64,000 bases of DNA, taken from contig JBJEDT010000025.1 in the NCBI GenBank assembly GCA_051872335.1, positions 51,365 to 115,364 on the forward strand, read 5' to 3'. The number at the start of each line of letters is the position of its first letter. Within the stretch, counting starts at the first letter, position 1. The stretch is from Bacilli bacterium. GTDB lineage: Bacteria > Bacillota_I > Bacilli_A > RFN20 > CAG-826. Below are positions 11,961 to 28,700 of this stretch, one piece after another. Position numbers and translations under genes: made by a program. The notes beneath the pieces were generated by a model. That model made no database searches, was not told where the DNA came from, and was given only the letters and a program-made list of their open reading frames with translations.

Positions 11961-13505
11961 CTATTTCTTACGTTCGAATTCATTATTCTTTAAGAATAAT
12001 TCGAACTCTTCTCTACTTAAAGGTTTTGAATAATAATAACCTTGAATGAAGTCACATTCTGAAGCCTTACAAATAGCAACTTGTTTAGCAGTTTGAATAC
12101 CTTCAGCAACAACTTTCATATCGAGAGCCTTTGCCATCGCAATAGTAGTTTTTGCAATATCACGTGACTTCTTATCAACTTCGACAGAATCAAAGAAAGA
12201 TTTATCAATCTTTAAAGTATCCATCGGTAATTTACGTAAGTTAGATAATGATGAATATCCAGTACCAAAATCATCAACAGCTAACTTAATGTGTAAAGCT
12301 TTTAATTGTTTAATAATAGATAATAAATATAGCATATCTCTACGAGCACTTGATTCAGTTAATTCAAGTTCAAGTTGTAAAGGAGATACCCCAAATTTTT
12401 CCATCGTTTCAGTTAAGAATTGAATAAGGTCAGTACGATAAATACCATTTCTTGAAAGGTTAACTGAAACATTAACTAAACGAGAACCTCTTTTTTTCCA
12501 GTATGCTAAGTCTTGGCAAACATGTTCAAACATATATCTATCAATTTCAATAATTTGATCATTACGTTCAGCAAATGGAATAAATGTTGCTGGGTTAACA
12601 ATACCTTTTGTTGGGTGTCTCCAACGAATAAGAGCTTCAGCACCAGTAAATTTTTCAGCTTTTAAATCAAATTTAGGTTGATAGAAAACTTCAAACTCAT
12701 GATTCTTAATTGCGTTTTCAATATCGTGAGCAAGTTCAAGTTCATCAATACTCTTTTGAATCATTGATTCTTCAAAAATAACAATGTTACCTTCTAGAGG
12801 CATATACATAGAGTTACGAGCAACTTCACAACGAGTAACAATATCATCAATAGATAATTTTTTATCATCTTCACATAAACATGTTTTATATGTTAATGTT
12901 GTAGGAACTCCTTTTTTATGAACATTAGAGTTAATAGCTTGATATAAAGCATCCATTTCTTTAATAATGGTTTTAGCATCATCAGCTTCCATATAAATTA
13001 AGAAAGCACCAGATGATCTTAAACCATATAATACGTTGTTAGCATTAACTTTGTAACGACCAACAATCGTTTCAGCAGCACAACGTGTCATTGCACGTGA
13101 AACATCTAAAGATGCTGTTGTAACACCACTACCGACAACATCAGAAGGCTTATCTAAATCAAGAGTTCCAATATAAGTAAATCTTCTATTTTTAATATTT
13201 CTTCTTTTTTCAACACCTAAATGAAAGTAGTTTTCATTATAAATATTATAATTACGATCGTAATAAGCAAGGTGATATTCACGAGATTCAGCAGCCCTTA
13301 CACGAACAGAACGTGCTGTGATTAACAAACCTAAAGCAATTAATATGCCAAGGAAAGAGCCACCTATATAGTAGTAATATGTTTGATCTAGTGGATGTCT
13401 TAAGAAAAACCATACTAATACACCAACACCAGCTGCAAAGAATAAATATCCAAAAATATTAAGTAAAATAATTTTTGTTTTAGCTTTTTTCATATTACTT
13501 ATCAC
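11961..13505 (-). CDS. Membrane-anchored degenerate-GGDEF/EAL c-di-GMP phosphodiesterase
   Basis: Two N-terminal TM helices. EAL-domain motifs EVFYQPK…GAEALIRW…, a DDFGTGYSS-type stretch and QG.Y are present. No intact GGDEF motif. The start overlaps the upstream sipW-like stop by 11 bp. Confidence 0.7.
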   Translation of the reverse strand: MISNMKKAKTKIILLNIFGYLFFAAGVGVLVWFFLRHPLDQTYYYYIGGSFLGILIALGLLITARSVRVRAAESREYHLAYYDRNYNIYNENYFHLGVEKRRNIKNRRFTYIGTLDLDKPSDVVGSGVTTASLDVSRAMTRCAAETIVGRYKVNANNVLYGLRSSGAFLIYMEADDAKTIIKEMDALYQAINSNVHKKGVPTTLTYKTCLCEDDKKLSIDDIVTRCEVARNSMYMPLEGNIVIFEESMIQKSIDELELAHDIENAIKNHEFEVFYQPKFDLKAEKFTGAEALIRWRHPTKGIVNPATFIPFAERNDQIIEIDRYMFEHVCQDLAYWKKRGSRLVNVSVNLSRNGIYRTDLIQFLTETMEKFGVSPLQLELELTESSARRDMLYLLSIIKQLKALHIKLAVDDFGTGYSSLSNLRKLPMDTLKIDKSFFDSVEVDKKSRDIAKTTIAMAKALDMKVVAEGIQTAKQVAICKASECDFIQGYYYSKPLSREEFELFLKNNEFERKK

Positions 13506-14262
13506 CTTCCCTTTCTTCTTTATCTTTTAAGTTTTCGTCTTTATTTTCTTTTTTTAATTCATCAAGAATTTGATTCTTCATTTCTTGTTTTAGTCTTTCC
13601 ATTTCTTCTTCGTGAGTCTCAAGACCTTCTTGTTTTCTTTTCTTTTCCATCTCATTTTCAACATGTACTAAACGTGCTTGTTTAATAAAATCAATAATGG
13701 AAACAATAAGAACATATCCTCCAGGAATCATTATTAGTAAAAATGAGACCAATGGTTTAGAAATAAATGAATAAACTACACCAAGTGAATAGGAATTTTT
13801 AACAACTTTACCAATAAGATAGTTACTATTAATAAAGTCATGTGGTTTTCCTTCACAACCACTTGTTCCACAAGATGAAGCTTCCATATTATCACCAAAA
13901 CATTCTAGTGTATATGTACCATCCTCATTTGCAGATATACCAACTAATCGATGAGTTACAATTTTATCATCGGATGTTCGATAAAATGTAATAATATCAC
14001 CTTCAACAATTATATTACCTTCTTCATCTACTTGTTTGGCAACTAATGTCGAAGGATCTACTTCTTTAACAATTACCATAGAATCAACTTTTAAAGTTGG
14101 CTCCATAGAATCAGTATAGACAATCAAAAATGATGTTTTACCAATTTGTGGTACTCCATAATTTCCTTGTCTTGATGTAAGTGAAATAATATTAATACCA
14201 AAGAAAAGGACTACAAAAACTGATAATAAAATTGATGCAATAATTTTAAGTTTCTTTTTCAT
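13495..14262 (-). CDS. sipW: SipW-type (archaeal/ER-type) signal peptidase I with C-terminal TM anchor and K/E-rich tail
   Basis: N-terminal TM, then catalytic-Ser motif YTDSMEPTLKVDSMVIV (SMEP, as in SipW). A second TM lies near residue 170, followed by a 60-aa K/E/D-rich tail. Confidence 0.7.
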   Translation of the reverse strand: MKKKLKIIASILLSVFVVLFFGINIISLTSRQGNYGVPQIGKTSFLIVYTDSMEPTLKVDSMVIVKEVDPSTLVAKQVDEEGNIIVEGDIITFYRTSDDKIVTHRLVGISANEDGTYTLECFGDNMEASSCGTSGCEGKPHDFINSNYLIGKVVKNSYSLGVVYSFISKPLVSFLLIMIPGGYVLIVSIIDFIKQARLVHVENEMEKKRKQEGLETHEEEMERLKQEMKNQILDELKKENKDENLKDKEEREGDK

Positions 14263-14282
14263 CAGTTTCTCCTTTCCTCATT

Positions 14283-16412
14283 TTATGCGTTATTGTTGTT
14301 ATCGTCAGAATATTCAAAGTCGAAGTCATCATCATCAAAAGATTCTTCATCTTCCTCTTCTTCAAATTGTTGATCAACAATTTTCTTAGCTTCTTCTTCG
14401 TTTTCAATGTAATCGCTGTTATCTTCTATTTCTTCTTCATTAGAATTATCATCTTCATTATTTTCTTCATTAATTTCTTCTTGTTCTAATAATGTAGATT
14501 CGTTGTCTTCTTCTAAAGAAGTAGAAGTTTCTAAAGTTTCAGATGATTCTTCTTGATTATCGATATTATTATCAATATCCTCTGCATAAGTAAAATCATC
14601 GTCTTCTTCATCAAATTCATCAAGTCCAGCGTTACGACGATATGCTTCTTGAGCCATACGCAATGCTTCTAGTTTTGCTTGAGCTTTAGCAATTAATTCA
14701 TTACGTAAAGATTGTTGACGACGTCTTTCTTCTTCAAGTAACATTTCACGTTGTCTTTGTTCACGTTCAAGTTTTGCTTGTTCACGTGCAGCAATCTTAT
14801 CCTCAATAGCTTTTTTACGAGCTTCTTCCTTAGCCTTAATTTCTTCCATTCGTGCTCTACGACTTTCTTCCTCGATTTTAAACATTTCTTCAGCTTCCTC
14901 AAGGAGTCGCTTTTCTTCTTCCTCTTCTTCAGTTAAGCCAGAAGGACGAAGAACTTTTAATTCGGCTAAACGATCTTGCTCAGCTTGACGTTTTGCATTT
15001 TCACGTGCACGATTTAATGCATCTCTTTCTGCATCAAGAATTGCCTTTTCACGAGCTTTCTCTCGAGCAATTCTTTCTTCTTCAAGACGTTTTGCTTCTG
15101 CTTTTTCAAAAGCAATACGTGCTCTTTCTTCTGCAGCTTTTTGTTCTGCACGCATTTTTGCAATACGCTCTTCTTCTTTTTGCTTTGCAAGAGCTCTTTG
15201 TTTTTCTCTTTCTAAACGTTTTTGTTCAAGCACTTTGAGTTTTGCTAATCGTGCTTGTTCTTGTTTCTTTCTTAGATTTCTCATTTTAGGAGTTAAGTTT
15301 CTAGAAATTTCACTGCTTCCAGTTCCACCAACATAACGACCCTCAATATCAAATTTAGAATCCAAGAAATCTTTATCAATTACTCTATTACCAATCTTTG
15401 GTTGAATACGATAAGCCTTAACTTTTGCAAGGTCTATCATACGAGTCTTGTTTGTTTGTAAGGATATAATTCCTCCAAACATATTTTTTTGTAATTCATC
15501 AACATAAGGTTCATCAAATTTAGCTGATGTTTCCTTAACATGAATTGAAATACCTAACTTATCGTATGACTCCATAAATTTCCATAAAATATGAGCTTTT
15601 TTATAGTTAGGGTTTTTAACAATAATGTTTGTTAACATAATAGGTGAGTTAACAGGTTTACAATCTTTTAATTGTTCCATAAACCAGCTTTGTGAAAGGT
15701 AAGCTAATCTACGACGAAGTAATGCAATCTTTTTTAAAAGCAATTCATTAGCTTCCCTATTACCTTCATCAGCTGAAGGAACAGAAATTTTAACTTTAGT
15801 TTCATATTCATATAAAACTTCACCAACTTGAACTTTGTTTTTAACGACAACTGCATCTGAGTCACGTGTATCAGCGTGTTTTGTAATATAATCATATCTT
15901 TTATTAATGAAGTTTAAAGCACGTTCAATACATGTTTTAATAAAACGGTTTTCATAAATTCCGTATTCATCTTCTGCAGTAACAGTAAGAATTTTATTAG
16001 GAATAATATTGCCATCTTTATCAATATCTTTAATATATTGAGTATGAGATGCTAAGTGAATAACTGATTCATTTGTAATTTTACGAGCTAATTCAATTGG
16101 TGTAATATAACGTTCAAGACGAATATGCTTTTTTGGATCTTTAGAAATGTTTTCTAAAGCAGGAATAGCATTTTCAAAGTGTTGAATCCAAAGTAGATCA
16201 TATTTTTTTGTCTCTGTACGAGATAATTGTGAAATTTCTTGATCTGGAGAATTTCTAATAGCAACTAAGAATTCACGTGAAGTTGGGTCACTATCAACAA
16301 CTTCATTAACTGCTTCAATATAGCGTTTATGAACATCATCAAATGGAGAAGGTCCTAGATTACTTAAATCAACAGGAGATTCTACTTGTTTGTTCTTTTC
16401 TTCATCTGCCAT
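14283..16412 (-). CDS. McrB-partner protein: unknown N-domain (about 370 aa) + roughly 230-aa K/E/R/A coiled coil + poly-acidic C-terminal tail
   Basis: Located 86 bp downstream of the McrB-like gene (the McrC position). N-domain contains DEYGIYENRFIK. Residues about 380-600 are REKAREKA…/AKRQAEQDRLAELK-type heptads. The C-terminus is …EEEEDEESFDDDDFDFEYSDDNNNNA. No PD-(D/E)xK nuclease motif was recognised. Confidence 0.6.
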   Translation of the reverse strand: MADEEKNKQVESPVDLSNLGPSPFDDVHKRYIEAVNEVVDSDPTSREFLVAIRNSPDQEISQLSRTETKKYDLLWIQHFENAIPALENISKDPKKHIRLERYITPIELARKITNESVIHLASHTQYIKDIDKDGNIIPNKILTVTAEDEYGIYENRFIKTCIERALNFINKRYDYITKHADTRDSDAVVVKNKVQVGEVLYEYETKVKISVPSADEGNREANELLLKKIALLRRRLAYLSQSWFMEQLKDCKPVNSPIMLTNIIVKNPNYKKAHILWKFMESYDKLGISIHVKETSAKFDEPYVDELQKNMFGGIISLQTNKTRMIDLAKVKAYRIQPKIGNRVIDKDFLDSKFDIEGRYVGGTGSSEISRNLTPKMRNLRKKQEQARLAKLKVLEQKRLEREKQRALAKQKEEERIAKMRAEQKAAEERARIAFEKAEAKRLEEERIAREKAREKAILDAERDALNRARENAKRQAEQDRLAELKVLRPSGLTEEEEEEKRLLEEAEEMFKIEEESRRARMEEIKAKEEARKKAIEDKIAAREQAKLEREQRQREMLLEEERRRQQSLRNELIAKAQAKLEALRMAQEAYRRNAGLDEFDEEDDDFTYAEDIDNNIDNQEESSETLETSTSLEEDNESTLLEQEEINEENNEDDNSNEEEIEDNSDYIENEEEAKKIVDQQFEEEEDEESFDDDDFDFEYSDDNNNNA

Positions 16413-16435
16413 TTTATAATCCTCCTTTCTTGAAA

Positions 16436-16498
16436 TTCATAATATATATAATAATGAAAATATAAATATATATAATATAAATAATATATATATAATAA
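16436..16498. repeat. (TA)n / ATA-rich simple-sequence tract in the McrB-like/partner intergenic region
   Basis: aatatatataataatgaaaatataaatatatataatataaataatatatatataataatt, seen directly. Confidence 0.7.
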
Positions 16499-18034
16499 TT
16501 AGCTTCCCACTTTCATTAAGTTTTCAATAAACTTCTTAGATTCAGGGAATGTGTTTTTACCAAATAAATGGTCAAGTTGTTCTATTAATTGACGTAATTC
16601 GTCTTTTAAGAAACCAATATTTAAGGATTCAAATTTCTTCAAAATCTTTGTTGAGAAGATATAGTCAAATCCATCAATTTCAGTACCACCACATGCAACG
16701 TACATTGGGACGAATAACTTTAATTGTTTCATAATACGGTTACCGAAAGCCAACTTGAAGTTTTTAATAACGAAGTCATCAAGTTTAGCAAATTTTTCAA
16801 TAATTTTATTTGAAACAGGATAGTTAGTTAATGCTTCTTGATATAGCTTATGTAAATATTCATAAGAAATATTTACTGGATCAGTAAAGTCTGCTTCAAA
16901 AGCAACACCTTTATTATTTAAGAAAATACAGATAGCACGGTCGTAAACCTTATCTGAAATAGTAAATGTAGAGTCATCGTTGTTAGCTGTTCCAATAAAC
17001 CATAGGTTTTGTGGAATTAATAATTTACCATCAGTAACATGTGCAGGGTCAGTTTTTGGATCTGGTGAAGAAATAAGTTCAACAATCCATTCATTAACGT
17101 TAGGCATTTCCATAATGGACAAGAATTCTGCAAAATAATACTCAATACGAGCTAAGTTCATTTCGTCGAGGACGATAACGTTACAGTCTTCACGATATGT
17201 ACATTCATAAATAATCTTTAAGAATTCAGTTTCATTAAATTTCTTTGTAAATTCGTTGTAATATCCGATAAGTTCTGAACGGTCACGCCAAGATGGTTGA
17301 ACAGGACAAATCTTTGTATCATTTTGGAAGAATTTTCCTAGTGCATATGGTAAGGAGGTTTTACCAGTACCAGAAATACCTTCTAGAATTAATAGTTTAG
17401 ATGCACCTAAACCAGCAAAGAAAGCACGAATAACTTTTAGTTCATAATATAGACCAAGTTGAGATGCAGCAAAGTTTCTAAAACGTTCACATAATTGTTC
17501 TAGAGATAGTTTATCAGCATCGTCCATTCGAACTGTCATATCAAGAGATTTATATTTAGCATCAACAAGAGCTAATTTTGTAAAACGACATTCAGTATTT
17601 GGACCTTTATCTTCTTCTTCCTCTTCTTCCTCTTCTTCAGGTAACTTACCACCTAAAGCATTAACTTTTAAGTTGAGAATTTTATTTCTTTCTTCTATAG
17701 CTTTATATAGTTCATAATTCAAACGTTCAACTTGTTGCATAAGTTCTTGTTGCTCTTGAACTTTTTTGCTAAAGCGGAATAATTTTCTAAATAGTAAAAA
17801 GAATAAGAAAATAATACCACCTATTAAAGCAGCAATAATGAGATAATAAATAACAAATAAAATCCATCCACCAGCACCGAATCCTGGTTTATATAGAATT
17901 AATAAATCGTTATAATCTCTAAAATTTTGACCGACTTCAGACCATGGATCTACAAATGTTAATTTGAGGAATCTTACAAGGTCTTGTATAAATAGTTGCC
18001 ACATGGCAGCTACATATTGGAAAAAGTCATTCAT
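16499..18034 (-). CDS. Membrane-anchored McrB-like AAA+ (AAA_5) GTPase
   Basis: One TM helix (GWILFVIYYLIIAALIGGIIFLFFLLF), a coiled coil and an E9 tract, then a McrB-type NTPase. Motifs are Walker A LEGISGTGKTSL, VIVLDEMNLARIEYYFAEFLSIME (compare McrB IFIIDEINRANLSKVFGEVMMLME) and WFIGTANNDDSTF (compare McrB IIGLMNTADRS). Confidence 0.7.
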   Translation of the reverse strand: MNDFFQYVAAMWQLFIQDLVRFLKLTFVDPWSEVGQNFRDYNDLLILYKPGFGAGGWILFVIYYLIIAALIGGIIFLFFLLFRKLFRFSKKVQEQQELMQQVERLNYELYKAIEERNKILNLKVNALGGKLPEEEEEEEEEDKGPNTECRFTKLALVDAKYKSLDMTVRMDDADKLSLEQLCERFRNFAASQLGLYYELKVIRAFFAGLGASKLLILEGISGTGKTSLPYALGKFFQNDTKICPVQPSWRDRSELIGYYNEFTKKFNETEFLKIIYECTYREDCNVIVLDEMNLARIEYYFAEFLSIMEMPNVNEWIVELISSPDPKTDPAHVTDGKLLIPQNLWFIGTANNDDSTFTISDKVYDRAICIFLNNKGVAFEADFTDPVNISYEYLHKLYQEALTNYPVSNKIIEKFAKLDDFVIKNFKLAFGNRIMKQLKLFVPMYVACGGTEIDGFDYIFSTKILKKFESLNIGFLKDELRQLIEQLDHLFGKNTFPESKKFIENLMKVGS

Positions 18035-18081
18035 ATTTAACCCTCCTAAATTTCAAGTACTCAAATTAGAAAAAATGATAA

Positions 18082-18864
18082 TTACTTTGTGCTAGATTGA
18101 TTATCCTCAATTCCTAACTCTTTTAATATTTCAGCTCTCATAGCTTCTTTTTCTTTTGCTCTTTCTTCTTCAGAAATAGCTGTTTTTTCTTTAGCTAACT
18201 CCTTAGCGTTTTCTTCTTTTGTTTCTATGATTGTAACTATTAACTTATATCCTTTATATAAGAATAGACAAAACATAGGAACTAAAACACATAATGCAAA
18301 TCCCCATGCATAAGGAGTATCTAATAAAAAGCCATAGACAGCTCCAATACCAGGTACTCGTGTTCCGTTATATACCCCTATAACGGATGAATAAGTGACT
18401 GTTTGTGTTGCTAGTACATCCCCATCTTCGACATAAGTACCTTTTGTGACGAAGAGAGCCCCCTTGTTTTGAATTTCAATAACTTGGTGGGTAACAATTT
18501 CACTTTGTCCATCACCATCAATATCATAAAAGAATGATATAATAGTTTCATTTTCAATAATTTCAATACTTGGTTTCAAATATTGAGTTGCATCATCGTA
18601 TCTAAATGATACTTTTTCAACAACAATCAAATCCCCTTTATTGATTGTGCCTTTCATTGAGCTCGTTTGAACTCTTAAATAAGACTTATTATTTATAGTA
18701 GGAACCCCATAATTATTCTTTGAAGTAAGAGAAACCGCAACAAGAAACACTGATAGTAATACCATTACTACCGTGAAAACATTAATGACAATATTTATAA
18801 TTTTAGAAAACAAAGATTCTTTTTCATCTTTAACATTTTCATTTTGTACTTTTTGTTTTTTCAT
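18082..18864 (-). CDS. sipW: SipW-type signal peptidase I, paralog 2, with C-terminal TM and K/E-rich tail
   Basis: TM, then QTSSMKGTINKGDLIVVEKV (S-M motif), a C-terminal TM (WGFALCVLVPMFCLFLY) and a tail KEENAKELAKEKTAISEEERAKEKEAMRAEILKEL. Confidence 0.65.
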   Translation of the reverse strand: MKKQKVQNENVKDEKESLFSKIINIVINVFTVVMVLLSVFLVAVSLTSKNNYGVPTINNKSYLRVQTSSMKGTINKGDLIVVEKVSFRYDDATQYLKPSIEIIENETIISFFYDIDGDGQSEIVTHQVIEIQNKGALFVTKGTYVEDGDVLATQTVTYSSVIGVYNGTRVPGIGAVYGFLLDTPYAWGFALCVLVPMFCLFLYKGYKLIVTIIETKEENAKELAKEKTAISEEERAKEKEAMRAEILKELGIEDNQSSTK

Positions 18865-18901
18865 TTACTTCCTCGTTCAAATAATAGTTAAGTTTTGTTT
18901 T

Positions 18902-20197
18902 TTAGTGTCCCCATTCATCTTGGCTGTTTACATCTCTACCATTCAAAATAATATTTGCAATAAAACTCGAATCAGACGAATCACTGCTGCAATCTAAATC
19001 CCATCCTTCTGCCCACATAGTGACAATTAATTTTTTAGCTTCTCTACGTGTAACATAAGTTAAAGCATTATCTATTCGTTTATATGCGTTAGTAGATGAA
19101 GATGTTGTTCTTTTTTTATCTAAAGCATCTTCTTCATAAAGAATTAGATTTTCCCCATTAACAACTTTAGATTGTTCAACATCTATAGGATTTGCATTTC
19201 CCCATGAATTTGCAAAGAAACCACCTACAAGTTCATGCTTTTCAAGTCCTGATGCACGAGCATTTTCTGAATATACTAGATTTGCACCATTTAGCAAACT
19301 ATATCTACCATAAAGAATTTCATTCTTTCTATATTCAGTTGCCCCATCATCAATAGAAGGATATACATCATAATATCCATCCTGAGGATCAGCATCTAAA
19401 CGACCATAATATTTTGTTTTTTGAAGAATAGAATTTTCATATGTTGGATTTCCATCAAATATATTATAAGTAAATCTATTGGTTCTATTTCCATCATCAT
19501 CTGTGTAATCTAATTCACTAAAAAACCCAATTCTAATATAGTTACTAACTTTATTTAATCGTTCTTCAGTATAACTAGAAACTGCTGCTTTTTCAGCGTT
19601 TTTTTCAGTATCTGGAAGAATAGATATATTTGAAGATAAAAAGACAAATACAGGAACATTTGTTGCTCTAACATAGAACTCAAATTCATAGTAATAATCT
19701 TTTACTTCGTTTCGTGTAACAGTAGTTCTACCACCAATATCAGTTAATGTTGGCATTTTAGTATAAACAGGCCTTGTTGATTCTAAACTAGTGGCATTAT
19801 TAAGCCATTCATCATAATAAGCATTTGAAATTGGTTGAAGTTTTGTACCTTCATCATATTGACCAAAATCAGTTAATACATCTGTATTAATATGAAATTC
19901 AGTATCAGTAAAATAATATATATCATCAACCCACTCACCAGTATCATCACTATATTTTTCTTTTAGTGAAGATAAGGATTCAGCAGGTGCTTTTAAACCA
20001 AGTTGCAAAACTCCCTCATCATCATAAATGGTATAAGATAAGTTATCAACCTGCAAAGCATTTGAAAATTCATACCACGCAACTGTAACAGTTACAAGAG
20101 ATGCTACAGCAAGAACAAACGAAGAGAAAGCTGCCATTACTTTATAATTTATTTTCTTATTCATATTGGTAGCTTCCTCCTTTCGTTTAATTTTCAA
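18902..20197 (-). CDS. TasA/camelysin-family secreted protein (SipW-cognate signal peptide)
   Basis: N-terminus …VASLVTVTVAWYEFSN…. C-terminal motif VTMWAEGWDLDCSSD. Confidence 0.6.
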   Translation of the reverse strand: MKIKRKEEATNMNKKINYKVMAAFSSFVLAVASLVTVTVAWYEFSNALQVDNLSYTIYDDEGVLQLGLKAPAESLSSLKEKYSDDTGEWVDDIYYFTDTEFHINTDVLTDFGQYDEGTKLQPISNAYYDEWLNNATSLESTRPVYTKMPTLTDIGGRTTVTRNEVKDYYYEFEFYVRATNVPVFVFLSSNISILPDTEKNAEKAAVSSYTEERLNKVSNYIRIGFFSELDYTDDDGNRTNRFTYNIFDGNPTYENSILQKTKYYGRLDADPQDGYYDVYPSIDDGATEYRKNEILYGRYSLLNGANLVYSENARASGLEKHELVGGFFANSWGNANPIDVEQSKVVNGENLILYEEDALDKKRTTSSSTNAYKRIDNALTYVTRREAKKLIVTMWAEGWDLDCSSDSSDSSFIANIILNGRDVNSQDEWGH

Positions 20198-20244
20198 AGT
20201 GTAGTATCGTTAAAATATTATCTACCTAATAAATGAATTTTTTA

Positions 20245-21840
20245 TTAATTACCTAGACCTGGAGCATGGAAACAAATACTACCTGTGAATGGTGCTTTGT
20301 TGTCATTTACAGAATTTGTATCCCAACCTTCTGTCCAAATCTTAATTGTTACTTCAGCATAACCTCTAGAATCAGTAATTGCTAAAGGATGATTTTTTGA
20401 TGCATCTTCGTGATATACGAAGTAATCAATACCATGTGCATCTTGTGTTTTAGCTTTGACTTTTTCACTGTATTTGAATGAAATTGATTCATATGCAGTT
20501 CCATCAGTCTTAACAAATTTACCAACGAATGCATTTTTATTAGCACCAATAACTGGTGTAGTAATATCAGATCCACCATTATCAACTACAACACTATATG
20601 TGTCATCATATAATGTATCGCCAGGTAATTCTAAATCTTCATGTTCACCATACCATTTATGGTCAAATCTCTTATAAGTTCCATCTGTTAAGTTATCAAC
20701 AACAGAACTATCAATTGATACGAAATCATCATTTTCTGTATCCCATGCAAATGCATGTCTTGTTGTAACATCATCAACAGTTGTATCGTAGTAATATACT
20801 TTTCTTGTATCTACTGTACCTTTTGCAGCTTCTAATCCATCTGCATCAGTAACATTAACAAAGTAAGTTGATTTATCTGAATCAGAAATGTTTGTAGTGT
20901 TGTAATCCCAAACACCATCAGCATCTAAATCTAGATATCCACCAACATTAGTTGAAACTTTATCATAACTAAAGTTAGATGGTGAATAAATATAATTGTT
21001 ATAATCAGATTCAAATGAAACACGTAAAGTTTTAACAACGTTATGTGTTACAGTTTGATTACCTTGTGTACCACCAATAAAATATGTACTTGCGTTATCT
21101 AAATAAATTGGTTGGTTAGCTACACCATTTGTATTAAATACTAAAGTGAAAGACATATACTTTTCTTTAATTGCTTTAATACCATCATTATAAGCTGTTA
21201 AATCAAGTGCATATTGAGCTAATTCAGCTTCTGAAGCATCATCACCAGGATATACAGGAGCAGTGTAAATTGCTGTATTACTATCATAATTTCCAGTAGC
21301 ACCTGCCAAAGCATTTCTATCTGGAATATCATAAAGTAATACATCATCATTTTTATCTAAACCAGTTCCTAATGCTAAAGATTGATCATTAAAATGACGT
21401 GAAGTAACTGGAGCTATAAAGTTCTCAGATTCTCTATCGGTATAACCATCATTGTAGTAAACAGCACGTAAATGACTTGCTTTGATTTGGTTACCTTTTT
21501 CAGTAAAGTTACTACCTTCTTGATAGTTCCAATAAATGTCGTTAATTTCAACTTCAGTATTTCCACCATCATAAGTAGGAATATCTTCATCACCAACTGC
21601 TTCAACTTTGAATTCATCTCCATTGGTATCACCAAATTGAGCAATTAATGCTTTAGCACCTTCAATAGTGTGTGGTTTAATACCAATAGTCAATGAACCA
21701 TCAATTTTAGCTGTTGTACCTGAGATTGTTGCTGTACCAGTATTTGATACAACGTACCAAGCAAATGTACCACCAACTAAGCAAAGTGTTGCTGCGCCAA
21801 ATGATGCAACCGATAATCCTAATTTCTTAGTATTCTTCAC
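20245..21840 (-). CDS. TasA/camelysin-family secreted protein (SipW-cognate signal peptide), 531 aa
   Basis: N-terminus MKNTKKLGLSVASFGAATLCLVGGTFAWYVVSN is nearly superimposable on TasA MKKKLSLGVASAALGLALVGGGTWAAFND. C-terminal TIKIWTEGWDTNSVND. Confidence 0.7.
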   Translation of the reverse strand: MKNTKKLGLSVASFGAATLCLVGGTFAWYVVSNTGTATISGTTAKIDGSLTIGIKPHTIEGAKALIAQFGDTNGDEFKVEAVGDEDIPTYDGGNTEVEINDIYWNYQEGSNFTEKGNQIKASHLRAVYYNDGYTDRESENFIAPVTSRHFNDQSLALGTGLDKNDDVLLYDIPDRNALAGATGNYDSNTAIYTAPVYPGDDASEAELAQYALDLTAYNDGIKAIKEKYMSFTLVFNTNGVANQPIYLDNASTYFIGGTQGNQTVTHNVVKTLRVSFESDYNNYIYSPSNFSYDKVSTNVGGYLDLDADGVWDYNTTNISDSDKSTYFVNVTDADGLEAAKGTVDTRKVYYYDTTVDDVTTRHAFAWDTENDDFVSIDSSVVDNLTDGTYKRFDHKWYGEHEDLELPGDTLYDDTYSVVVDNGGSDITTPVIGANKNAFVGKFVKTDGTAYESISFKYSEKVKAKTQDAHGIDYFVYHEDASKNHPLAITDSRGYAEVTIKIWTEGWDTNSVNDNKAPFTGSICFHAPGLGN

Positions 21841-23011
21841 TATCGTTTACCTCCTTTTTAAAATTTTTATTCATATTAGTTAAATTTTTCATATCAATAT
21901 TTGTAAAGTTTTTATTTTCGTTAAGTACTATCATTCCTGATTCTTCGTTCATTAAACCGGCTGTTTCTTCTTCCGTATCGAATTCATCACGAAGTGCAAT
22001 ATACATTGAAAGTTGTATACCAGCACCACTAGGAACATTCCCTGTAGCTTCTAAATCATATCCATCAATCCATACAATAATTGTGAAACGAATTGTTTCT
22101 TGCCCTTCGATGTAATCTTCATTTGATTTTAAAATATAATCACTATCATAGAATGGTTCAGCAAATCCTTTATTGATTTCCTTTTCACCAGTACATATTA
22201 GAAGACCATCATCAGTTTTTACGTATCTAGAAATACATTCTCTAGATTCATTATCACTAGTTTCAGTTTTTACAGGTTCAGATCTAACTTTTGCATATGT
22301 TACCATATCATGAGTTTGATCTTCTTCATGAATCAATCCATCACTTCCATATATAACAGAGTTCTTGTAGAATCGTAATCTAATAACATTATCAATTGTG
22401 ATATTAGATTCAGTTGAAACAGTCATATCGTCAATTTTGATATGAAAGTCATAACCTGCTCTTCTACTACCAACATTGCGAATATAGAAAGTATATGCTA
22501 AGAAAGAGCCACCATAAATTTCAGAAGTTCCATTATGTGATCCACCTTGAATTGGATCAATAATATCTTCGTCAGGAAGTTCATCAGCAGCCATTGCATA
22601 AGTTGATCTAGATGACTCAGCTCTTAAACGAGTTGTCTTGTTTTCAAAATAGCCATCTTCGCTCATAGTTAAAGCAAGTTGGTCACGTTCAAGTTGAACT
22701 GTTAAGTTACCAACAAGTGAACTTAAATATGCAATAGTAATGATAATACAAAGTATAACTACAGAAAGAGATAAGAAAAAGTTTACAAACATCTTTTTTC
22801 TGTAACGTGAAGCTACAGGATCTTTGTAATTTTTGAACTTCTCATAAGGGTTATCAATTTCAACGAGTCTTTTCGACTTCTTTTTAGGTTGTTCTTCAGC
22901 CTTGTCTTTATCGTCAGTTTTAGATGAAGGATCAATGTTTTCACTTTCCTCATCCAAAATAGATTTTAGTTCATCTGAAGATAACTCTTCTAATTGATCC
23001 TTTTTAGCCAT
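21827..23011 (-). CDS. Membrane-tethered TasA-like protein: charged N-terminal cytoplasmic tail + single TM + TasA-like ectodomain
   Basis: Residues 1-75 are K/D/E-rich, then a TM FFLSLSVVILCIIITIAYLSS (a degenerate T.AY motif). C-terminal RFTIIVWIDGYDLEATG matches the family IW.EGWD motif. Confidence 0.55.
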   Translation of the reverse strand: MAKKDQLEELSSDELKSILDEESENIDPSSKTDDKDKAEEQPKKKSKRLVEIDNPYEKFKNYKDPVASRYRKKMFVNFFLSLSVVILCIIITIAYLSSLVGNLTVQLERDQLALTMSEDGYFENKTTRLRAESSRSTYAMAADELPDEDIIDPIQGGSHNGTSEIYGGSFLAYTFYIRNVGSRRAGYDFHIKIDDMTVSTESNITIDNVIRLRFYKNSVIYGSDGLIHEEDQTHDMVTYAKVRSEPVKTETSDNESRECISRYVKTDDGLLICTGEKEINKGFAEPFYDSDYILKSNEDYIEGQETIRFTIIVWIDGYDLEATGNVPSGAGIQLSMYIALRDEFDTEEETAGLMNEESGMIVLNENKNFTNIDMKNLTNMNKNFKKEVNDSEEY

Positions 23012-23326
23012 AGTTATCTCCTTGTTTTTTTAATAACGAAAAAAAGTGTAAATGTTCTCCTATTTTTTAATTTTTTACATCAACGACTTCGTATTGATCT
23101 CTCAATACACCATTAGAAGTGAAATCATTAACGTAACAATTAAGAAACAATTGATACATCAACATAGTATTTGGAATAAATCCTATTCAGTTGTAACACA
23201 ATATTAATGCCCTAAATCAATATCATGCTAGATTGATAGATTATTATAAATAATCTTTCAACCTATAAATAATATAACATAATAATTTTATAAGAGTATT
23301 ATTTTTACACAATTTTTTTAAGAAAA

Positions 23327-23359
23327 CATTAAAAAAAGGTACCAAAATCGGTACCTTTT
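23327..23359 (-). terminator. Rho-independent terminator after the sipW paralog 3
   Basis: aaaaggtacc-aaaatc-ggtacctttt hairpin with U7 on the minus-strand transcript, 17 bp past the stop at 23376. Confidence 0.7.
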
Positions 23360-23375
23360 AATAACATTTTAGTGT

Positions 23376-24191
23376 TTATTCGGATTTTTTATCCTTTTCT
23401 TTCTCTTTTTCTTTCATCTCTTTCTTGAGTTCCTCTAAAGCTAAACGCTTAGCTTCCTCAAGAATTTGAGCTTTTTCTTCTTCATGTTGCATAGTTATTT
23501 CTTCAATAGCAGCATCTTTCTTTTGAACAAAGATTAGTCTAATGAATGAATAACCATTCCAGATGAATAATGCAATAAGAGGAAGAACAATTACACAAAA
23601 CATTAATGTAGTATTTGATTGTAATCCATAGACAATAGTGCCCATACCATTTACATGGCCTTTATATTTAGCAATGATTTTATCAGTGGAAATATTAATT
23701 ACATTTGTAGAAATATCTTCTTCAGCATCACCACGTGTGTAAATACCATAAGTTACACTTCCACTTTCTGTAATAATTTCACGAACTTCACGGATTCGGT
23801 GGGTAACAACAGCTTCTTGACCATTAACATATGACCAATACATAATGATGTCACCTTTGTTTTCTCCTAAACTATCATCACCTTTTAAACTCTCAATTTG
23901 TTCTCTTCTTTCAGTAGGATCATTTGAGAATTGTTTACCATAAACTAAATCGCCTTTTTTAAAGGTAGGTGCCATAGAATCAGATAAAACAGGGAATAAT
24001 GAATTACCTGTAATAGGATTACTAGCAACTGAAGATGTATTACTACTTGTTGTTCCCATTGTTAATATAGAAACGATCAATAAGAATACAACTAACAAAC
24101 ACTCAGCGACAGTCAAAGATGTATTAACAATCTTTTTTACTTTTGCTTTTTTATTTTTAGCAACTTCAACATTTTCGACTTGTTGTTCCAT
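23376..24191 (-). CDS. sipW: SipW-type signal peptidase I, paralog 3, with C-terminal TM and K/E-rich tail
   Basis: TM, then FPVLSDSMAPTFKKGDLVYG, a C-terminal TM (LMFCVIVLPLIALFIW) and a tail …EEKAQILEEAKRLALEELKKEMKEKEKEKDKKSE. Confidence 0.65.
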   Translation of the reverse strand: MEQQVENVEVAKNKKAKVKKIVNTSLTVAECLLVVFLLIVSILTMGTTSSNTSSVASNPITGNSLFPVLSDSMAPTFKKGDLVYGKQFSNDPTERREQIESLKGDDSLGENKGDIIMYWSYVNGQEAVVTHRIREVREIITESGSVTYGIYTRGDAEEDISTNVINISTDKIIAKYKGHVNGMGTIVYGLQSNTTLMFCVIVLPLIALFIWNGYSFIRLIFVQKKDAAIEEITMQHEEEKAQILEEAKRLALEELKKEMKEKEKEKDKKSE

Positions 24192-24251
24192 GCTAGCACC
24201 TCACTTTCATTTATTTTATAACAATAAATGTAGAATTCAATTTGTTATAAA

Positions 24252-25247
24252 TTAAGCAGCAGGCATGAATGAAGAGAATTGTAAAGTAGTATTAAATGAA
24301 CCATTTCTAACATCACCTGAGCAATCTTCATCTGTACCTTCAACCCAAATTCTAACACCAATATAGCCTAAATAAGCATCTTGTTCTACACCATTAGCGT
24401 TTGTAAACTTAATGTTATTGCCATCTTCGTCTTGAGCAGTTGCTAAAGTACAAACTTTTAATGAATTAACGGCAGAAGATGTAACTTTATCAGCAATAGG
24501 TGAAAGAATTGGAGTAATTTCACATAAAGAAGTAAAATCATTATATCCAGTATTAAATGAAGTTCCTGTCTTTACACTTGTACTAGTTGCTGAAGTACTT
24601 GTTATGAAATTATAGCCTTTGTCACCCTCTGAATCAGTACCAACAAAAACTCCTGTTAATGTCTTATTTTCACCATTTGATACAAAACCACCACTTTGAT
24701 TAGACTTTAAATCAAAGAAAGCAACTCTAGCACATTGGCTTAGACCCCAAGATTGAGCTACTTCATCTTCAGCAGCGCCAGGTTTTTTAACAGCGTTCTC
24801 TGTTAATTGTGTTTGAGATCCTAACCAAACTTCATAAGCTTTATCAGAACGGAAGCCAAGTACTATTTCATGTACATAAGTATACATTTTATCGCTTGAA
24901 CTAGTTGCCCCAGAAACATCAGCTACATTTGTAAAATTAGTACCATCAGAAGCAATATTTGGTTTAAAGAAAGAGACACCATCTCCTGAAACATCTTGAA
25001 CAGCTTTACCAGTTAAAGCTAAATCAGAGTAAATGCCCCAATCTTTAGCTGCCAATGTATAAGCAGTACCATTGTAAGAAACAACTCTCATTTCTAAGTT
25101 TGAATCTTGTTGAATAGTGACGTTATTTAAAGAAATTTGTGATTGACGTGTTGTTGTAAACCATGCATATGTAGCTGTTGACATTGCAACAGTTGACATT
25201 GCGAGTAATAAACCAGATGTGATTAATAATCTGTGATTTAATTTCAT
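24252..25247 (-). CDS. TasA/camelysin-family secreted protein (SipW-cognate signal peptide)
   Basis: N-terminus …AMSTVAMSTATYAWFTTTRQ…. C-terminal GVRIWVEGTDEDCSGD. Confidence 0.65.
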   Translation of the reverse strand: MKLNHRLLITSGLLLAMSTVAMSTATYAWFTTTRQSQISLNNVTIQQDSNLEMRVVSYNGTAYTLAAKDWGIYSDLALTGKAVQDVSGDGVSFFKPNIASDGTNFTNVADVSGATSSSDKMYTYVHEIVLGFRSDKAYEVWLGSQTQLTENAVKKPGAAEDEVAQSWGLSQCARVAFFDLKSNQSGGFVSNGENKTLTGVFVGTDSEGDKGYNFITSTSATSTSVKTGTSFNTGYNDFTSLCEITPILSPIADKVTSSAVNSLKVCTLATAQDEDGNNIKFTNANGVEQDAYLGYIGVRIWVEGTDEDCSGDVRNGSFNTTLQFSSFMPAA

Positions 25248-25718: not shown

Positions 25719-28700
25719 CTAGTTTTTCGCATTGAAATTCAAGTATTTTAAGTATTCTCTAATAGGAATAGGTTTAGAGAATAAGTAACCTTGTGCTTCG
25801 TCAAAGTTCATATCTTTTAAAATACTGAATTGCCCTTCGGTTTCAACACCTTCGGCAACAAGTCCAAATTTTGACTCTTTAGCAAAGTCAACAATATAGG
25901 ACAAAGCAACTTTAGAACGTTGAGAACGTTCAATATCCATAATACATGTACGGTCAACCTTAATTTGATCAACAGCTAGGTCTTGGAAGACCTTGTTAGA
26001 TTGAACAGACATACCATAGTTATCTATAGCCCATGATACTCCTTTTTCTTTTAAAATCAACATAACATTTCGAACTGTTTGCAAATTATCAACAACAACA
26101 CCTTCATTTACCTCGAATTTTAAGAATCCTGAAGGGAAACGGTGCTTATTCAATAAAGCAGAAACACGAGCGATAAAATCAGGGTTTGTAATTGAGTTTG
26201 AAGAAATGTTAATTGAAATATTTGTAACACCAATTTGTTGGAAAATTTCATAACCATGTGCTTTCCATAATTCACCAATAGAATCAATAATATATTGCTC
26301 AATTTCAAACATCATATTATTTTTAACAGCGATAGGAACAAATTCTGAAGGTGGAATATATCCACGAGCTGGATCGTTTAAACGTAATAAAGCTTCAGCA
26401 CCAATTGGTTTACGATCAGATATTCTTAAAACAGGTTGTAAGAAAACTTCAAATTTGTCTTTAGCAATAGCATCCTTAATGATATCAAGAATGTAGTCTT
26501 CACGATTAAGTTTACGGACATCTTTTTCACCGTAAATATACAAGTTATTCAAACCAATATTTTTTGCATCTTCTAAAGTTGTATTAACAGCACTATCAAA
26601 TTGTTCAATATCCAAAATATCACCAGGATATGGAATTAAAGAAGCATGGAATTCAATTCTAAATGTATCTTTATCACCAGTCATTGGTTCAATCATTTTA
26701 TTAAAGATATTTTCGACAAGTGTTAATACTTCTTTACGAGTATAACGTTTTAAAATAAGAGCAAGTGTTGTTTTATTATATCGATATACTTCATCTTGGA
26801 AATCAAGAATTTCAAATCTTCGTAACAATTCTTGTAAAATTTTTCTTTCACCTTCAACTTCAAACATTGGGATCCAATGTTCAAATTCGTGAATATCAAT
26901 GAAGAAAATATAACCCATTCCTTTAGTTTGTAGTTCACGTTCATAGTCACTTTTAAGTTTGACATCGTTGTAAATATGTAATAATGGGTCGTAGAAGTTA
27001 GCATCAAGTCTTTTTCTAGCTTCGTTATTTTCTAGTAAAATCAAAACTTCGTTTTCTTCAGTTGGTAAAGCAGCTAAAGTTGAAACCATAATTTCTTCAC
27101 CAAGTTTTGGTAAGAAAGCAAGACCATTACCAACTTTTAAAGGACAATAGTCACAAACTCTATTTCCTTGAGTATTAAAAATGTTATAACACTTAACACC
27201 ACGTCTAGCATTTGGATATATCTTAGCTAAACCTGTGGAAACATATGTTAATTCATTTGTCTTATTGTTAATACCATAAACATATTTTTCATCACGTTTT
27301 AACAATGTAGAAAGAATTAATTCTTGTCTTTCAACATCTTTTGCTGACATATACATATCTACCATTGCAAATATAATATCGGCAGCACATAACATAATTT
27401 CTCTATCGATAATAGTAAAAGGTGGTTGTTCATTTACGTTGTTAAAATAAATAATACCTTTTAATGTAGGACCTTTAGTCATCTTAAAGTGATAGTAACG
27501 TTCAATTGATAAATTGTAAAAAACAGATCTAACTGAGAATGGTAAGTTTTCTACTGTATTACCAAATAAAGATGAAGAACTATCAAATAAGTTCAAATAT
27601 TCATTTAAACGAGAAATTTGTAAAGAATCATAAGTAATAAAACCACTAGTATCTGGTGAAGAAGAGTGCTCAAACCAAGGAACAAGTCGACGTCCTGAGT
27701 CTTGAACTAACATAATGCCACCATTATCAAAGCCCATCATATTACAATAAAGTTTAACAGAGTTTTGAATTTCACGATTCAAGTCTTTAAAAGTAACACA
27801 ACGTACTAAATTTTTATTAATAGCTTCTAGATATAAAATTGATCTTCTATATCTTTCTTGAGAATCAAGAACAGCATCATTATTTGGTTCGAATAATCCA
27901 TAGTCTTGAACACCAACATTTTTAGTAGAGTCAAGAGCTTCAACAGCATCATTTATAATTCTTTCACTACTTGAGAAAGGATATATAGCGACACCAGCTT
28001 TACATGAATATAGAATTTGAGAACCATCACGTAAAATTTCTGTAATGTGATATTCAGATAATAAAGTTCTTAATTCAGAAATTAAGATTGATGTATTAGT
28101 AACTGATGATATATATAACAAAATCGTTTCGTGATCAAATTCACCAATCATTGTTGGTTTTAAAACTTCTTTAGCACGATTTACAAGTTCATATAAATAT
28201 TCAGGTTTTTCACTACCAATCATCTGTACTGCTATAACAGCTGAGTGATATAAATATTGCTTTGCAATAAGTTTATTCAAATTTGCTTGGAAACTATTAA
28301 ACGTTAATATATCATCACGAACAAAATCGGCTTCTTCTAAGTTAAGTGTTGTTTCAACAGCTGAGTAGCTTCGGTGTTCGAAAGCTTTAATTGTTTCATT
28401 AACGTAGTTTCTTAATGATTCAATTTCATTAATAGATAATTTTGTATTAATAGGTTTAAATTCAGTTTTAGATAATTGTTCAATAGAATCATTAACAATT
28501 TCAAGTTCATTTGTTACATGATTTGTAACTTTTTTAATTCCTTTACGATAAACTAAAATAAATATGAATTCGAAAATACCTGTTAGTGTCAATGCTCCTG
28601 CAATCACATAAGCGCTTCTATAAACGAAGAAGTAAACAAGTACTCCAATTAATATAAAAAGCGTCGATAGAACAGTTAATACTACCGGTTTAGTTAGATT

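Follow-up and report, generated by a model that had tools for sequence, protein, structure and literature searches.

TasA and CalY of Bacillus and BsaA of Clostridium perfringens are SipW-dependent subunits that assemble by donor-strand exchange, and the signals of TasA and CalY end in T-x-A followed by an aromatic residue. BsaA oligomers are membrane-anchored, and in the model put forward for them it is the subunit retained by its signal peptide that accepts a strand before SipW cleavage (PMC11580942). Single-copy accessory proteins standing beside the major subunit, TapA in B. subtilis and AbpB in Pyrobaculum, have been proposed to connect the fibre with the cell. TapA, whose Ig-like fold is unlike that of TasA, is a SipW substrate and works by means of the N-terminus that cleavage frees (PMC10151520, PMC9245690), which it then donates (PMC10151520). 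In Sulfolobus, Saci_0405 is a putative cap paralog co-transcribed with the thread subunit Saci_0406, and is proposed to occupy one fibre end with one-sided strand exchange (PMC9715654).

The gene analysed here, referred to as gene T, likewise lies beside ER-type SipW peptidases, and resembles TapA and AbpB in specifying a single-copy accessory protein next to a secreted subunit-type gene whose signal ends, as in TasA and CalY, in T-x-A and an aromatic residue. It differs from TasA, CalY and BsaA in showing no detectable sequence similarity to TasA and in carrying, instead of a signal, a long and uniformly hydrophobic anchor after a 74-aa tail, which probably leaves it without a free donor strand. 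The surroundings of gene T in the window, i.e. the whole stretch of 64,000 nucleotides that was analysed, comprise the following features.

23376..25247, minus strand: upstream unit, paralog A and SipW1
24252-25247, minus strand: paralog A, secreted-type, signal ...TATYA/WF
23376-24191, minus strand: SipW1
23334..23359, minus strand: intrinsic-terminator-like hairpin, 11-bp stem and T run, between SipW1 and gene T
23240..23269, minus strand: sigma-70-like promoter match upstream of gene T, TTTATA-18-AATAAT, a consensus match only
23018..23023, minus strand: AAGGAG ribosome-binding site of gene T, read from the sequence, 6 nt upstream of the ATG
21827..23011, minus strand: gene T, whole gene, encoding a 394-aa signal-anchored TasA-like paralog (NCBI MGM9858388.1, hypothetical protein ACI311_03965)
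20245..21840, minus strand: gene B, secreted-type TasA-like paralog, signal ...GGTFA/WY
18902..20197, minus strand: gene C, second secreted-type paralog, signal ...TVTVA/WY
11961..18864, minus strand: rest of the T operon, SipW2 through the EAL gene
18082-18864, minus strand: SipW2
16499-18034, minus strand: TM-tethered McrB-like AAA+ protein (PADLOC PDC-M26A 5e-38, weak sub-threshold AAA_5 match)
14283-16412, minus strand: DUF2357-like coiled-coil protein
13495-14262, minus strand: SipW3
11961-13505, minus strand: EAL protein

The open reading frame of 394 codons was confirmed, and NCBI annotates the identical protein, from a Bacilli MAG, as hypothetical with the same start. An internal start at M74 was rejected because M1 has a strong ribosome-binding site and coincides with the NCBI start, because residues 1-22 and 44-74 are kept in a 67%-identical homolog, and because starting there would strip the protein of any basic n-region. 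The strong terminator at 23334-23359 makes gene T the first gene of its own transcription unit; its earlier description as the first gene of the minus-strand array thus holds for this unit but not for the strand as a whole, where TasA-like and SipW genes lie upstream. No c-di-GMP or other riboswitch was found in the 365-nt leader, the sole weak match being the terminator hairpin itself. Gene B begins at a GTG and shares 14 nt with the end of T; its AAGGAGG ribosome-binding site lies inside T, within the DNA for the C-terminal tail. All three SipW-like genes of the window (NF046067 / TIGR02228 matches) keep the Ser, His and Asp positions, in the contexts S-M, T-H and G-D, and SipW2 was for this reason rejected as a candidate inactive paralog.

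The protein itself is divided as follows.

22790..23011, minus strand: residues 1-74, charged tail, predicted cytoplasmic; acidic helix around residues 12-25, basic cluster next to the membrane, D64-PVASRYRKK-73
22712..22789, minus strand: residues 75-100, single TM segment or signal anchor FVNFFLSLSVVILCIIITIAYLSSLV, holding the family motif T92-I-A94-Y95-L96
21989..22711, minus strand: residues 101-341, predicted extracytoplasmic beta-sandwich, block-mean pLDDT >90 over most of its length
22040..22090, minus strand: residues 308-324, RFTIIVWIDGYDLEATG, the W-x-[ED]-G-x-D motif common to the secreted paralogs
21827..21988, minus strand: residues 342-394 and stop, acidic, Asn-rich C-terminal tail of low model confidence, present in the closest relatives only

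In the membrane, protein T would have a type II topology (N-in, C-out). The 74-residue tail contains 18 K/R and 19 D/E, with 6 K/R among the 15 residues preceding the TM segment. The hydrophobic stretch F75-V100, including ...VILCIIITIAYLSSLVG, reaches a maximum 19-residue KD value of 2.76, against 1.6-2.35 in the signal peptides of the neighbours, and the AF2 model places a helix over residues 65-99 (block-mean pLDDT about 79-97). The first strand of the ectodomain, G101-N-L-T-V-Q-L107, is near-invariant and lies no more than a few residues beyond the TM segment; from 103 to 341 the ectodomain is modelled with confidence as a beta-sandwich.

Profile comparison supports protein T as a true but distant paralog of its secreted neighbours. 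Aligned by hhalign with the 'TFAWF' family of the window (genes at 24252, 20245, 18902, 10279 and 6727), it gave a value of 95.4% (E 1.8e-8, 226 columns), and a second alignment confined to 33 C-terminal columns gave 89.8% (E 1.8e-6); pairwise BLASTP against the secreted neighbours detected the W-x-E-G-x-D-x-x-C motif alone. The best-aligned part is R308-FTIIVWIDGYDLEATG-324, for which the family consensus is RYTxVxWLEGxDPxCxG. The modelled jelly-roll or beta-sandwich is of the kind that superposes on TasA-type subunits, as expected of the donor-strand fibre superfamily to which TasA, Saci_0406, AbpA and CanX belong. The first-pass annotation had called the protein a TasA-like paralog, which both the profile alignment and the predicted fold bear out; it had also placed the family motif at the C-terminal end, and while the motif is present, a final beta-strand (331-341) and an acidic tail of 53 aa come after it. 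Neither T nor any of 76 family members matched PF12389 (Peptidase_M73, TasA/camelysin), no TasA was recovered in the PDB profile search, and the only neighbour with a PF12389 match is gene B, below threshold (E 0.0017, 18.7 bits for a cut-off of 22.5). In a greedy profile alignment, whose N-terminal end is of low confidence, the TM helix of T occupies the donor-strand position of the paralogs.

The relatives of T form a sizeable, newly defined family that currently lacks annotation, with 373 cluster representatives at E<=1e-3. For T and 76 relatives no Pfam, NCBIfam or PADLOC family was found, and the PDB, searched by sequence and with the profiles of both families, yielded nothing relevant. 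A common architecture, consisting of a basic cluster, about 23 uncharged residues, a strand G-x-[FY]-T-[VI]-x-L that follows 3-8 residues later and a domain with YTFY..N and W-L-E-G-x-D, is found in 131 of the 141 full-length representatives and in T, where G101 and N179 stand at invariant positions and T104, R211, W314, G317 and D319 at near-invariant ones. The charged N-terminal tail, thought earlier to be distinctive, does span 74 residues in T but is a minority trait of the family (median 15 aa; at least 40 aa in 25 of 131). In sub-clades, N-terminal extensions reaching 140 aa are conserved, as is a juxtamembrane motif of the form Y-x-basic; this suggests selection on the cytoplasmic side that would be unexpected for a discarded peptide. 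Divergent members lack a small residue at -1 (e.g. ...LFLYIVYDGGRFTVTL) and keep the basic cluster, the TM segment and the strand. One clear member, P0142 (hmmsearch E 2e-70), has a perfect lipobox, LTS/C, instead of the TM segment, so that the tether appears to be retained by other means; a second lipoprotein-like candidate, P0131, was not counted, its lipobox being imperfect.

In place of the T-[FYV]-A-W-[FY] of its neighbours protein T has T92-I-A94-Y-L, and the residues that follow A94, YLSSLVG, do not resemble the W-[FY]-T start of the A-type proteins (the secreted-type paralogs). Among the latter and TasA, an aromatic residue lies near the N-terminal cut (A/WF and A/AF), and F29 of TasA acts as a key knob when the strand inserts (PMC10151520). 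With a matrix built from 88 non-redundant A-type cleavage sites, T scored 2.0 bits, against 21-39 for paralogs A-D of the window and 6.6 for E; the A-type leave-one-out median was 30.7, the T family median -12, and unrelated TM proteins of the same loci had median best scores of -8 to -4 with a maximum of 13.8. The score thus does not set T apart from unrelated TM helices. In comparisons within the same loci, the combined h- and c-regions are of similar length (20 residues in T-family proteins, 22 in A-type proteins), and their last 8 residues are more hydrophobic in the T family (mean KD 2.65 versus 1.1), with fewer small or polar residues at -7 to -2 (1.2 versus 3.2) and a larger preceding basic cluster (7 versus 4 K/R). 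A run of about 20-23 uninterrupted apolar residues without a polar c-region or a neighbour-type SipW site supports the earlier view of a signal anchor, and T appears not to have a SipW-type cleavable signal with a free N-terminal donor strand. The supposed degeneracy of the SipW motif needs revision, since T-I-A-Y-L does replace the motif of the neighbours but matches the consensus of its own family, [ILV]-[IV]-[AS]-[FY]-L-G, and is thus a conserved feature and not a decayed TFAWF.

This same consensus counts against the anchor reading. In the main sub-family, [ILV]-[IV]-[AS]/[FY]-L-G obeys the -3/-1 rule, position -1 being small (A in 52 and S in 22 of 76), position -3 aliphatic and position +1 aromatic, so that a dedicated SipW paralog could cut there. 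T would then be a minor subunit or initiator, TapA-like in function: cut after A94 by one SipW paralog, with its long N-region as an unusual cleaved signal peptide, the released protein (Y-L-S-S-L-V-G-N-L-T-V...) would donate its strand to an A-type subunit and prime or cap the fibre. We consider this unlikely, even though T has the -3 threonine of canonical T-x-A, the A-type matrix gives its highest score anywhere in the protein at A94, the window encodes three SipW paralogs that look active, SipW directly precedes T in 17 loci, and an aromatic residue comes second in both TapA and TasA once they are cleaved (PMC10151520). The motif [AS][FY]LG was moreover present only in loci holding a SipW gene (8/8 against 10/20, p 0.025), in a set of 28 scorable loci that is dominated by one clade and is not phylogenetically independent. 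Against cleavage stand the matrix score, the absence of a polar or helix-breaking c-region, and a hydrophobic helix that runs 5 residues beyond A94. The first strand begins about 7 residues past A94, where A-type proteins have about 8-15 extra donor residues; entire sub-clades have lost the small -1 residue and kept the TM segment, and the conserved cytoplasmic extensions and the lipobox variant point to a retained tether.

Beyond the window, a survey of about 80 MAG loci from other genomes (search alignment of 10 sequences) found the arrangement of T as first gene followed by secreted paralogs to be recurrent, as the first-pass annotation had it for this locus. Exactly one T gene is present in 78 of 80 loci; the next gene downstream is of A-type in 50 of the 76 scorable ones (median gap 17 nt), and an A-type gene occurs within 9 kb in 49/56. 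SipW occurs within 9 kb downstream in 39/56, and the AAA+ and DUF2357 genes are linked to T in 37-38/56. The pair of T and A-type genes is often followed by a McrB-like membrane AAA+ gene, a DUF2357 gene, SipW and an EAL gene; in about 20 loci the pair is the only conserved unit. In the library searched, no paper names SipW together with DUF2357 or RF39.

The pairing of T and A-type genes, tight and often overlapping across distant lineages and including the loci where nothing else is conserved, bears on two further explanations. It makes it quite unlikely that T is a stand-alone surface protein, a membrane-tethered jelly-roll serving as adhesin, ligand or calcium binder or sensor, co-regulated with the fibre genes and remaining outside the fibre; the fold and C-terminal strand motif that T appears to share with A-type proteins argue in the same direction. 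Such a role would nonetheless suit the Big_2 domain, typical of surface adhesins, at the C-terminus of one homolog, and the locus of P0142, which has no A-type, SipW or AAA gene and suggests that the family ectodomain may function independently of fibres. The linkage to the TM-tethered AAA+ and DUF2357 genes, together with the conserved cytoplasmic juxtamembrane motif, would rather suit a membrane-bound assembly factor, a catalytically acting chaperone or platform that holds exported A-type subunits and presents them to SipW or templates donor-strand exchange, its tail perhaps coupled to the AAA+/DUF2357 pair; TapA has been described as a specific chaperone (PMC10151520). This we consider very unlikely, as many T–A-type pairs have no AAA+ or DUF2357 gene within 10 kb, the ectodomain gives no hint of catalysis, and a one-to-one structural role accounts more simply for the paralogy.

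The reading we prefer, with a probability of roughly 45%, is that T keeps its signal anchor uncleaved and serves as a strand-accepting subunit at which the fibre is anchored or terminated. The secreted paralogs, with SipW-type signals ending in T-x-A/W-[FY], would gain a free N-terminal strand by cleavage and donate it to the next subunit. In T, the charged cytoplasmic tail would be followed by an uncleaved signal-anchor helix and a TasA-like beta-sandwich right at the outer membrane face; with a TM helix at the donor-strand position, T would have no strand to donate and could only receive one, which the last secreted subunit would supply from its free N-terminus. As SipW would never release T, the protein would tie the fibre to the membrane and stop growth at the base. 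With the predicted fold of the secreted subunits but a permanent-looking anchor where they have a cleavable signal, it is a good candidate for tying fibres to the cell, and may represent a permanent version of what is proposed for the newest BsaA subunit of C. perfringens, held only transiently by its signal peptide.

A comparable logic is known from basal pilins of the SpaB type in sortase pili and from the lipidated Mfa2 and FimB of type V pili, which have the fold of the stalk pilins, escape the processing that frees an end, and so end growth and fix the fibre to the envelope. By analogy, the role of T could be that of such a basal pilin, the more so as its family includes a lipoprotein variant; there is no homology, SipW acts instead of sortase or gingipain, and the tether would be a TM helix in the cytoplasmic membrane. 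Unlike Saci_0405, which is predicted to donate without accepting and has no TM anchor, T would accept a strand without donating one and be anchored in the membrane. A TapA-like nucleator, as suggested in the first-pass annotation, is not favoured. TapA needs an N-terminus freed by SipW (PMC10151520), and T has a TM helix at this position, its N-terminus probably buried in the membrane; it has no NCBIfam match, TapA / YqxM (TIGR04087) included, and its predicted fold is that of the subunit itself. As a plausible strand acceptor only, T would more readily serve as basal anchor or terminator than as initiator.

Going further, the T family might be the transmembrane base of an undescribed, energy-coupled TasA-type fibre machine in uncultured Bacilli and Clostridia of gut and rumen, its cytoplasmic tail linked to the membrane-tethered McrB-like AAA+ and McrC-N-like (DUF2357) pair and to c-di-GMP phosphodiesterases, so that fibre anchoring, length or release would be set from inside the cell. 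We regard this extension as very unlikely. The conserved operon does unite SipW-dependent fibre genes, a McrBC-like AAA+ module and EAL proteins.

These findings bear on how TasA-type donor-strand fibres attach, which end grows and what stops growth, be it the anchoring role of TapA in Bacillus, the membrane link of the oligomers in Clostridium perfringens or the polarity of archaeal threads. A subunit paralog that would stay in the membrane, encoded in most loci immediately upstream of a secreted subunit, offers a concrete candidate for a basal anchor or terminator, and would also fix the polarity of the fibre.

The hypothetical protein T is a 394-aa product with a transmembrane (TM) helix close to its N-terminus, lying among secreted TasA-like paralogs (A-type) whose signals carry the SipW-type motif T-x-A↓W-[FY], with ↓ the cleavage site.

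Features of the window
5161-6516, minus strand: MurA-like ORF
6727-7701, plus strand: secreted-type paralog, signal ...TLTFA↓WF
7746-10181, plus strand: 811-aa secreted protein between two secreted-type paralogs
10279-11187, minus strand: secreted-type paralog, signal ...ATATFA↓WF
11961-13505, minus strand: membrane-associated EAL protein, 514 aa
13495-14262, 18082-18864 and 23376-24191, minus strand: SipW paralogs
18902-20197, minus strand: A-type gene C
20245..21840, minus strand: A-type gene B
21827..23011, minus strand: T
23334-23359: terminator with an 11-bp stem
24252-25247, minus strand: A-type gene A
25719-28745, minus strand: membrane-associated EAL protein, 1008 aa

In this low-GC MAG, the ATG of T lies 6 nt downstream of an AAGGAG ribosome-binding site, the terminator falls between T and the upstream SipW-like gene, and the GTG start of gene B overlaps the end of T by 14 nt, its AAGGAGG being located within the T ORF. 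The identical NCBI product is MGM9858388.1 (394 aa, 'hypothetical protein ACI311_03965 [Bacilli bacterium]'). Residues 1-74 form a charged tail (18 K/R and 19 D/E, with 6 K/R among the 15 residues preceding the TM), followed by the hydrophobic stretch F75-V100 (maximum KD hydropathy 2.76 versus 1.6-2.35 in the neighbours' signals), a domain of ~240 residues and a 53-aa acidic tail. In the AlphaFold2 prediction (76 homologs, mean pLDDT 81.5), residues 65-99 are helical (block-mean pLDDT about 79-97) and residues 103-341 form a sandwich, most of which has block means >90. The first-pass annotation had described this sequence correctly, save for ending it with the motif RFTIIVWIDGYDLEATG (308-324), because a further strand and the acidic tail come after residue 324. 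The tail (residues 342-394; 21827-21988, minus strand) holds a short F-T-N motif, NKNFTNIDMKNL, which recurs in the closest homologs P0002, P0005 and P0006, the remainder being variable; homolog P0007 has a Big_2 domain at this position instead. Ectodomain residues C259 and C273 (about 22193-22237; RE-C-ISRY ... LI-C-TG), kept in 7/10 and 8/10 close homologs, may form a disulfide, which would suit an extracytoplasmic location. T lacks the Cys of the family D-P-x-C motif and reads D-L-E-A.

Pairwise BLASTP between T and its neighbours returned the W-x-E-G-x-D motif as sole match, T had no match in Pfam or NCBIfam, and 76 family members were without a sequence relative in Pfam, NCBIfam or the PDB. 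Alignment of the T family (A1) with the family of gene A (A2) reached 89.8% probability (E 1.8e-6) over the C-terminal 33 columns. With a permissive alignment of 102 diverse mature A-type sequences, hhalign gave 95.4% (E 1.8e-8) over 226 columns, from first to last strand. At the level of sequence profiles, this comparison settles the proposed paralogy with the secreted TasA-like neighbours.

An exhaustive phmmer search collected 373 cluster representatives at E<=1e-3. One common architecture is found in 131 of 141 full-length representatives: a basic cluster with a median of 7 K/R in 12 residues, an uncharged stretch of median length 23 and, a few residues later, a G-x-[FY]-T-[VI]-x-L strand. 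The N-tail has a median of 15 aa, at least 40 aa in 25/131 and at least 60 aa in 12/131, so that the 74 aa of T are unusual; sub-clades keep their N-extensions and a Y-x-basic juxtamembrane motif. In the main sub-family, position 94 is A in 52/76 and S in 22/76, position 95 is F in 52/76 and Y in 19/76, and G101 is invariant. The difference between T-I-A-Y-L and T-F-A-W-F, earlier called degenerate, is real but is not decay: since the main sub-family keeps a TM ending [ILV]-[IV]-[AS]-[FY]-L-G, T-I-A-Y-L is the consensus of its own family. Divergent branches retain the TM with no small residue anywhere before the strand (e.g. LFLYIVYDGGRFTVTL), and in P0142, which clearly belongs to the family (hmmsearch E 2e-70), a perfect lipobox, L-T-S↓C, stands in place of the TM. 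A short sub-family of about 235 aa, whose TM ends ...LFLYIVYDGGRFTV with no small -1 residue, occurs mostly in MAGs labelled Tenericutes, Mollicutes or Bacilli (loci L051-L055, L058, L060, L062, L063, L067, L070-L075); there the T-A pair stands alone, SipW and AAA+ being absent from the surrounding 10 kb.

A degenerate-pattern scan (one genome per species; six-frame ORFs, HMM-labelled) yielded 80 loci, almost all of them in uncultured Bacilli (labelled Bacilli, Bacillales, Erysipelotrichaceae, Mollicutes/Tenericutes or Ca. Alloenteromonas) and some Clostridia, in gut and rumen samples. A single T gene is present in 78/80, and the next gene downstream is A-type in 50 of 76 scorable loci (median gap 17 nt). 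Within 9 kb downstream, the 56 loci with enough sequence hold A-type (49), SipW (39), AAA+ (38) and DUF2357-like (37) genes, and the recurrent order is T, one or more A-type, sometimes SipW, AAA+, DUF2357-like, SipW and EAL. The T-A pair is the core unit, because about 20 loci show it alone within 10 kb. The placing of T as first gene of the array holds for the order across loci but not strictly in the window, where an A-type gene and SipW lie upstream, beyond the terminator.

The conserved operon (window 11961-23011, minus strand; L006-L084) joins TasA-like and SipW genes to a TM-tethered McrB-like AAA+ protein, a DUF2357-like protein and an EAL protein. At its N-terminus the AAA+ protein carries a TM; it has Walker motifs GISGTGKTS / LDEMNLARIEYYF, a PADLOC PDC-M26A match (5e-38) and a weak AAA_5 match below the curated threshold; its 709-aa partner, whose homologs match DUF2357, has a long charged coiled coil and an acidic tail. 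Such a McrBC-like module (37-38/56 loci) is unexpected within a fibre operon. The three SipW paralogs within 11 kb (255-271 aa each), with a C-terminal TM and a charged Lys/Glu-rich tail, may reflect substrate specialisation. An EAL gene ends the operon in 22/56 loci and, with the two EAL genes around the window's fibre genes, suggests c-di-GMP control. Homologs of the 811-aa secreted protein adjoin A-type genes in a few other loci. Several clustered copies of the short repeat TLSKFDNV / TLSKIDNV in the C-terminal half of the MurA-like ORF look like an insertion in an otherwise ordinary enzyme.

By classical criteria, a signal anchor shows uninterrupted apolar length and no c-region. With A-type paralogs of the same loci as internal controls, total apolar length is 20 residues in the T family and 22 in A-type, mean KD of the last 8 residues 2.65 versus 1.1, and small/polar residues at -7..-2 number 1.2 versus 3.2. 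On a matrix of 88 non-redundant A-type sites (-10..+5), these sites have a leave-one-out median of 30.7 bits, against 21-39 for window paralogs A-D and 6.6 for paralog E; the T family at its own motif has a median of -12, and unrelated TM proteins of these loci (SipW, AAA+, EAL) a median best score of -8 to -4 (maximum 13.8). T is probably retained in the membrane. A real counter-argument is that the main sub-family conserves a small -1, an aliphatic -3 and an aromatic +1 residue, and the aromatic residue that immediately follows the cleavage site of TasA is central to strand insertion (PMC10151520). A94 is also the best-scoring site in T, at 2.0 bits, and all three SipW paralogs retain the Ser, His and Asp positions (S-M, T-H, G-D); a SipW-cleaved minor or initiator subunit nevertheless appears unlikely.

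The role we propose for T, with a confidence of 0.45 and inferred at every functional step, is that of a basal anchor and growth terminator. At the low-confidence end of the profile alignment, mature A-type proteins have about 8-15 residues (W-F-T...) ahead of the strand aligned to G101-L107, and the space of these donor residues is the TM helix in T. For TasA, it is the liberated N-terminal segment that serves as donor strand, and TapA acts as initiator through donation of its own liberated N-terminus (PMC10151520). Oligomers of Clostridium perfringens BsaA are membrane-anchored, and in the proposed cycle a new subunit, not yet detached from its signal peptide, takes up the growing oligomer's strand and is released by SipW afterwards (PMC11580942). 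T, if never freed, would accept a strand once, then end growth and keep the fibre attached to the membrane. Comparable are the basal pilins of sortase pili and Mfa2/FimB, the lipidated anchors of type V pili. The nucleator role, also proposed earlier, is not favoured because it would require a free donor end. That T is a stand-alone surface protein on a tether seems improbable, slightly more so than cleavage; this reading is supported by the lipoprotein P0142 (L085 10001-10795), final gene of a four-gene unit with three small polytopic/bitopic membrane proteins and no A-type, SipW or AAA gene within 10 kb. Least probable is an assembly factor bound to the membrane, perhaps linked to the AAA+ module.

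No paper mentioning SipW together with DUF2357 or RF39 came up in full-text searches, and the term 'membrane-anchored' was absent from the donor-strand fibre papers found. In the literature, the BsaA model, TapA/AbpB (PMC9245690) and the Saci_0405 cap paralog, described in a paper that calls fibre polarity unknown (PMC9715654), come closest. T makes the question of fibre anchoring and polarity testable.
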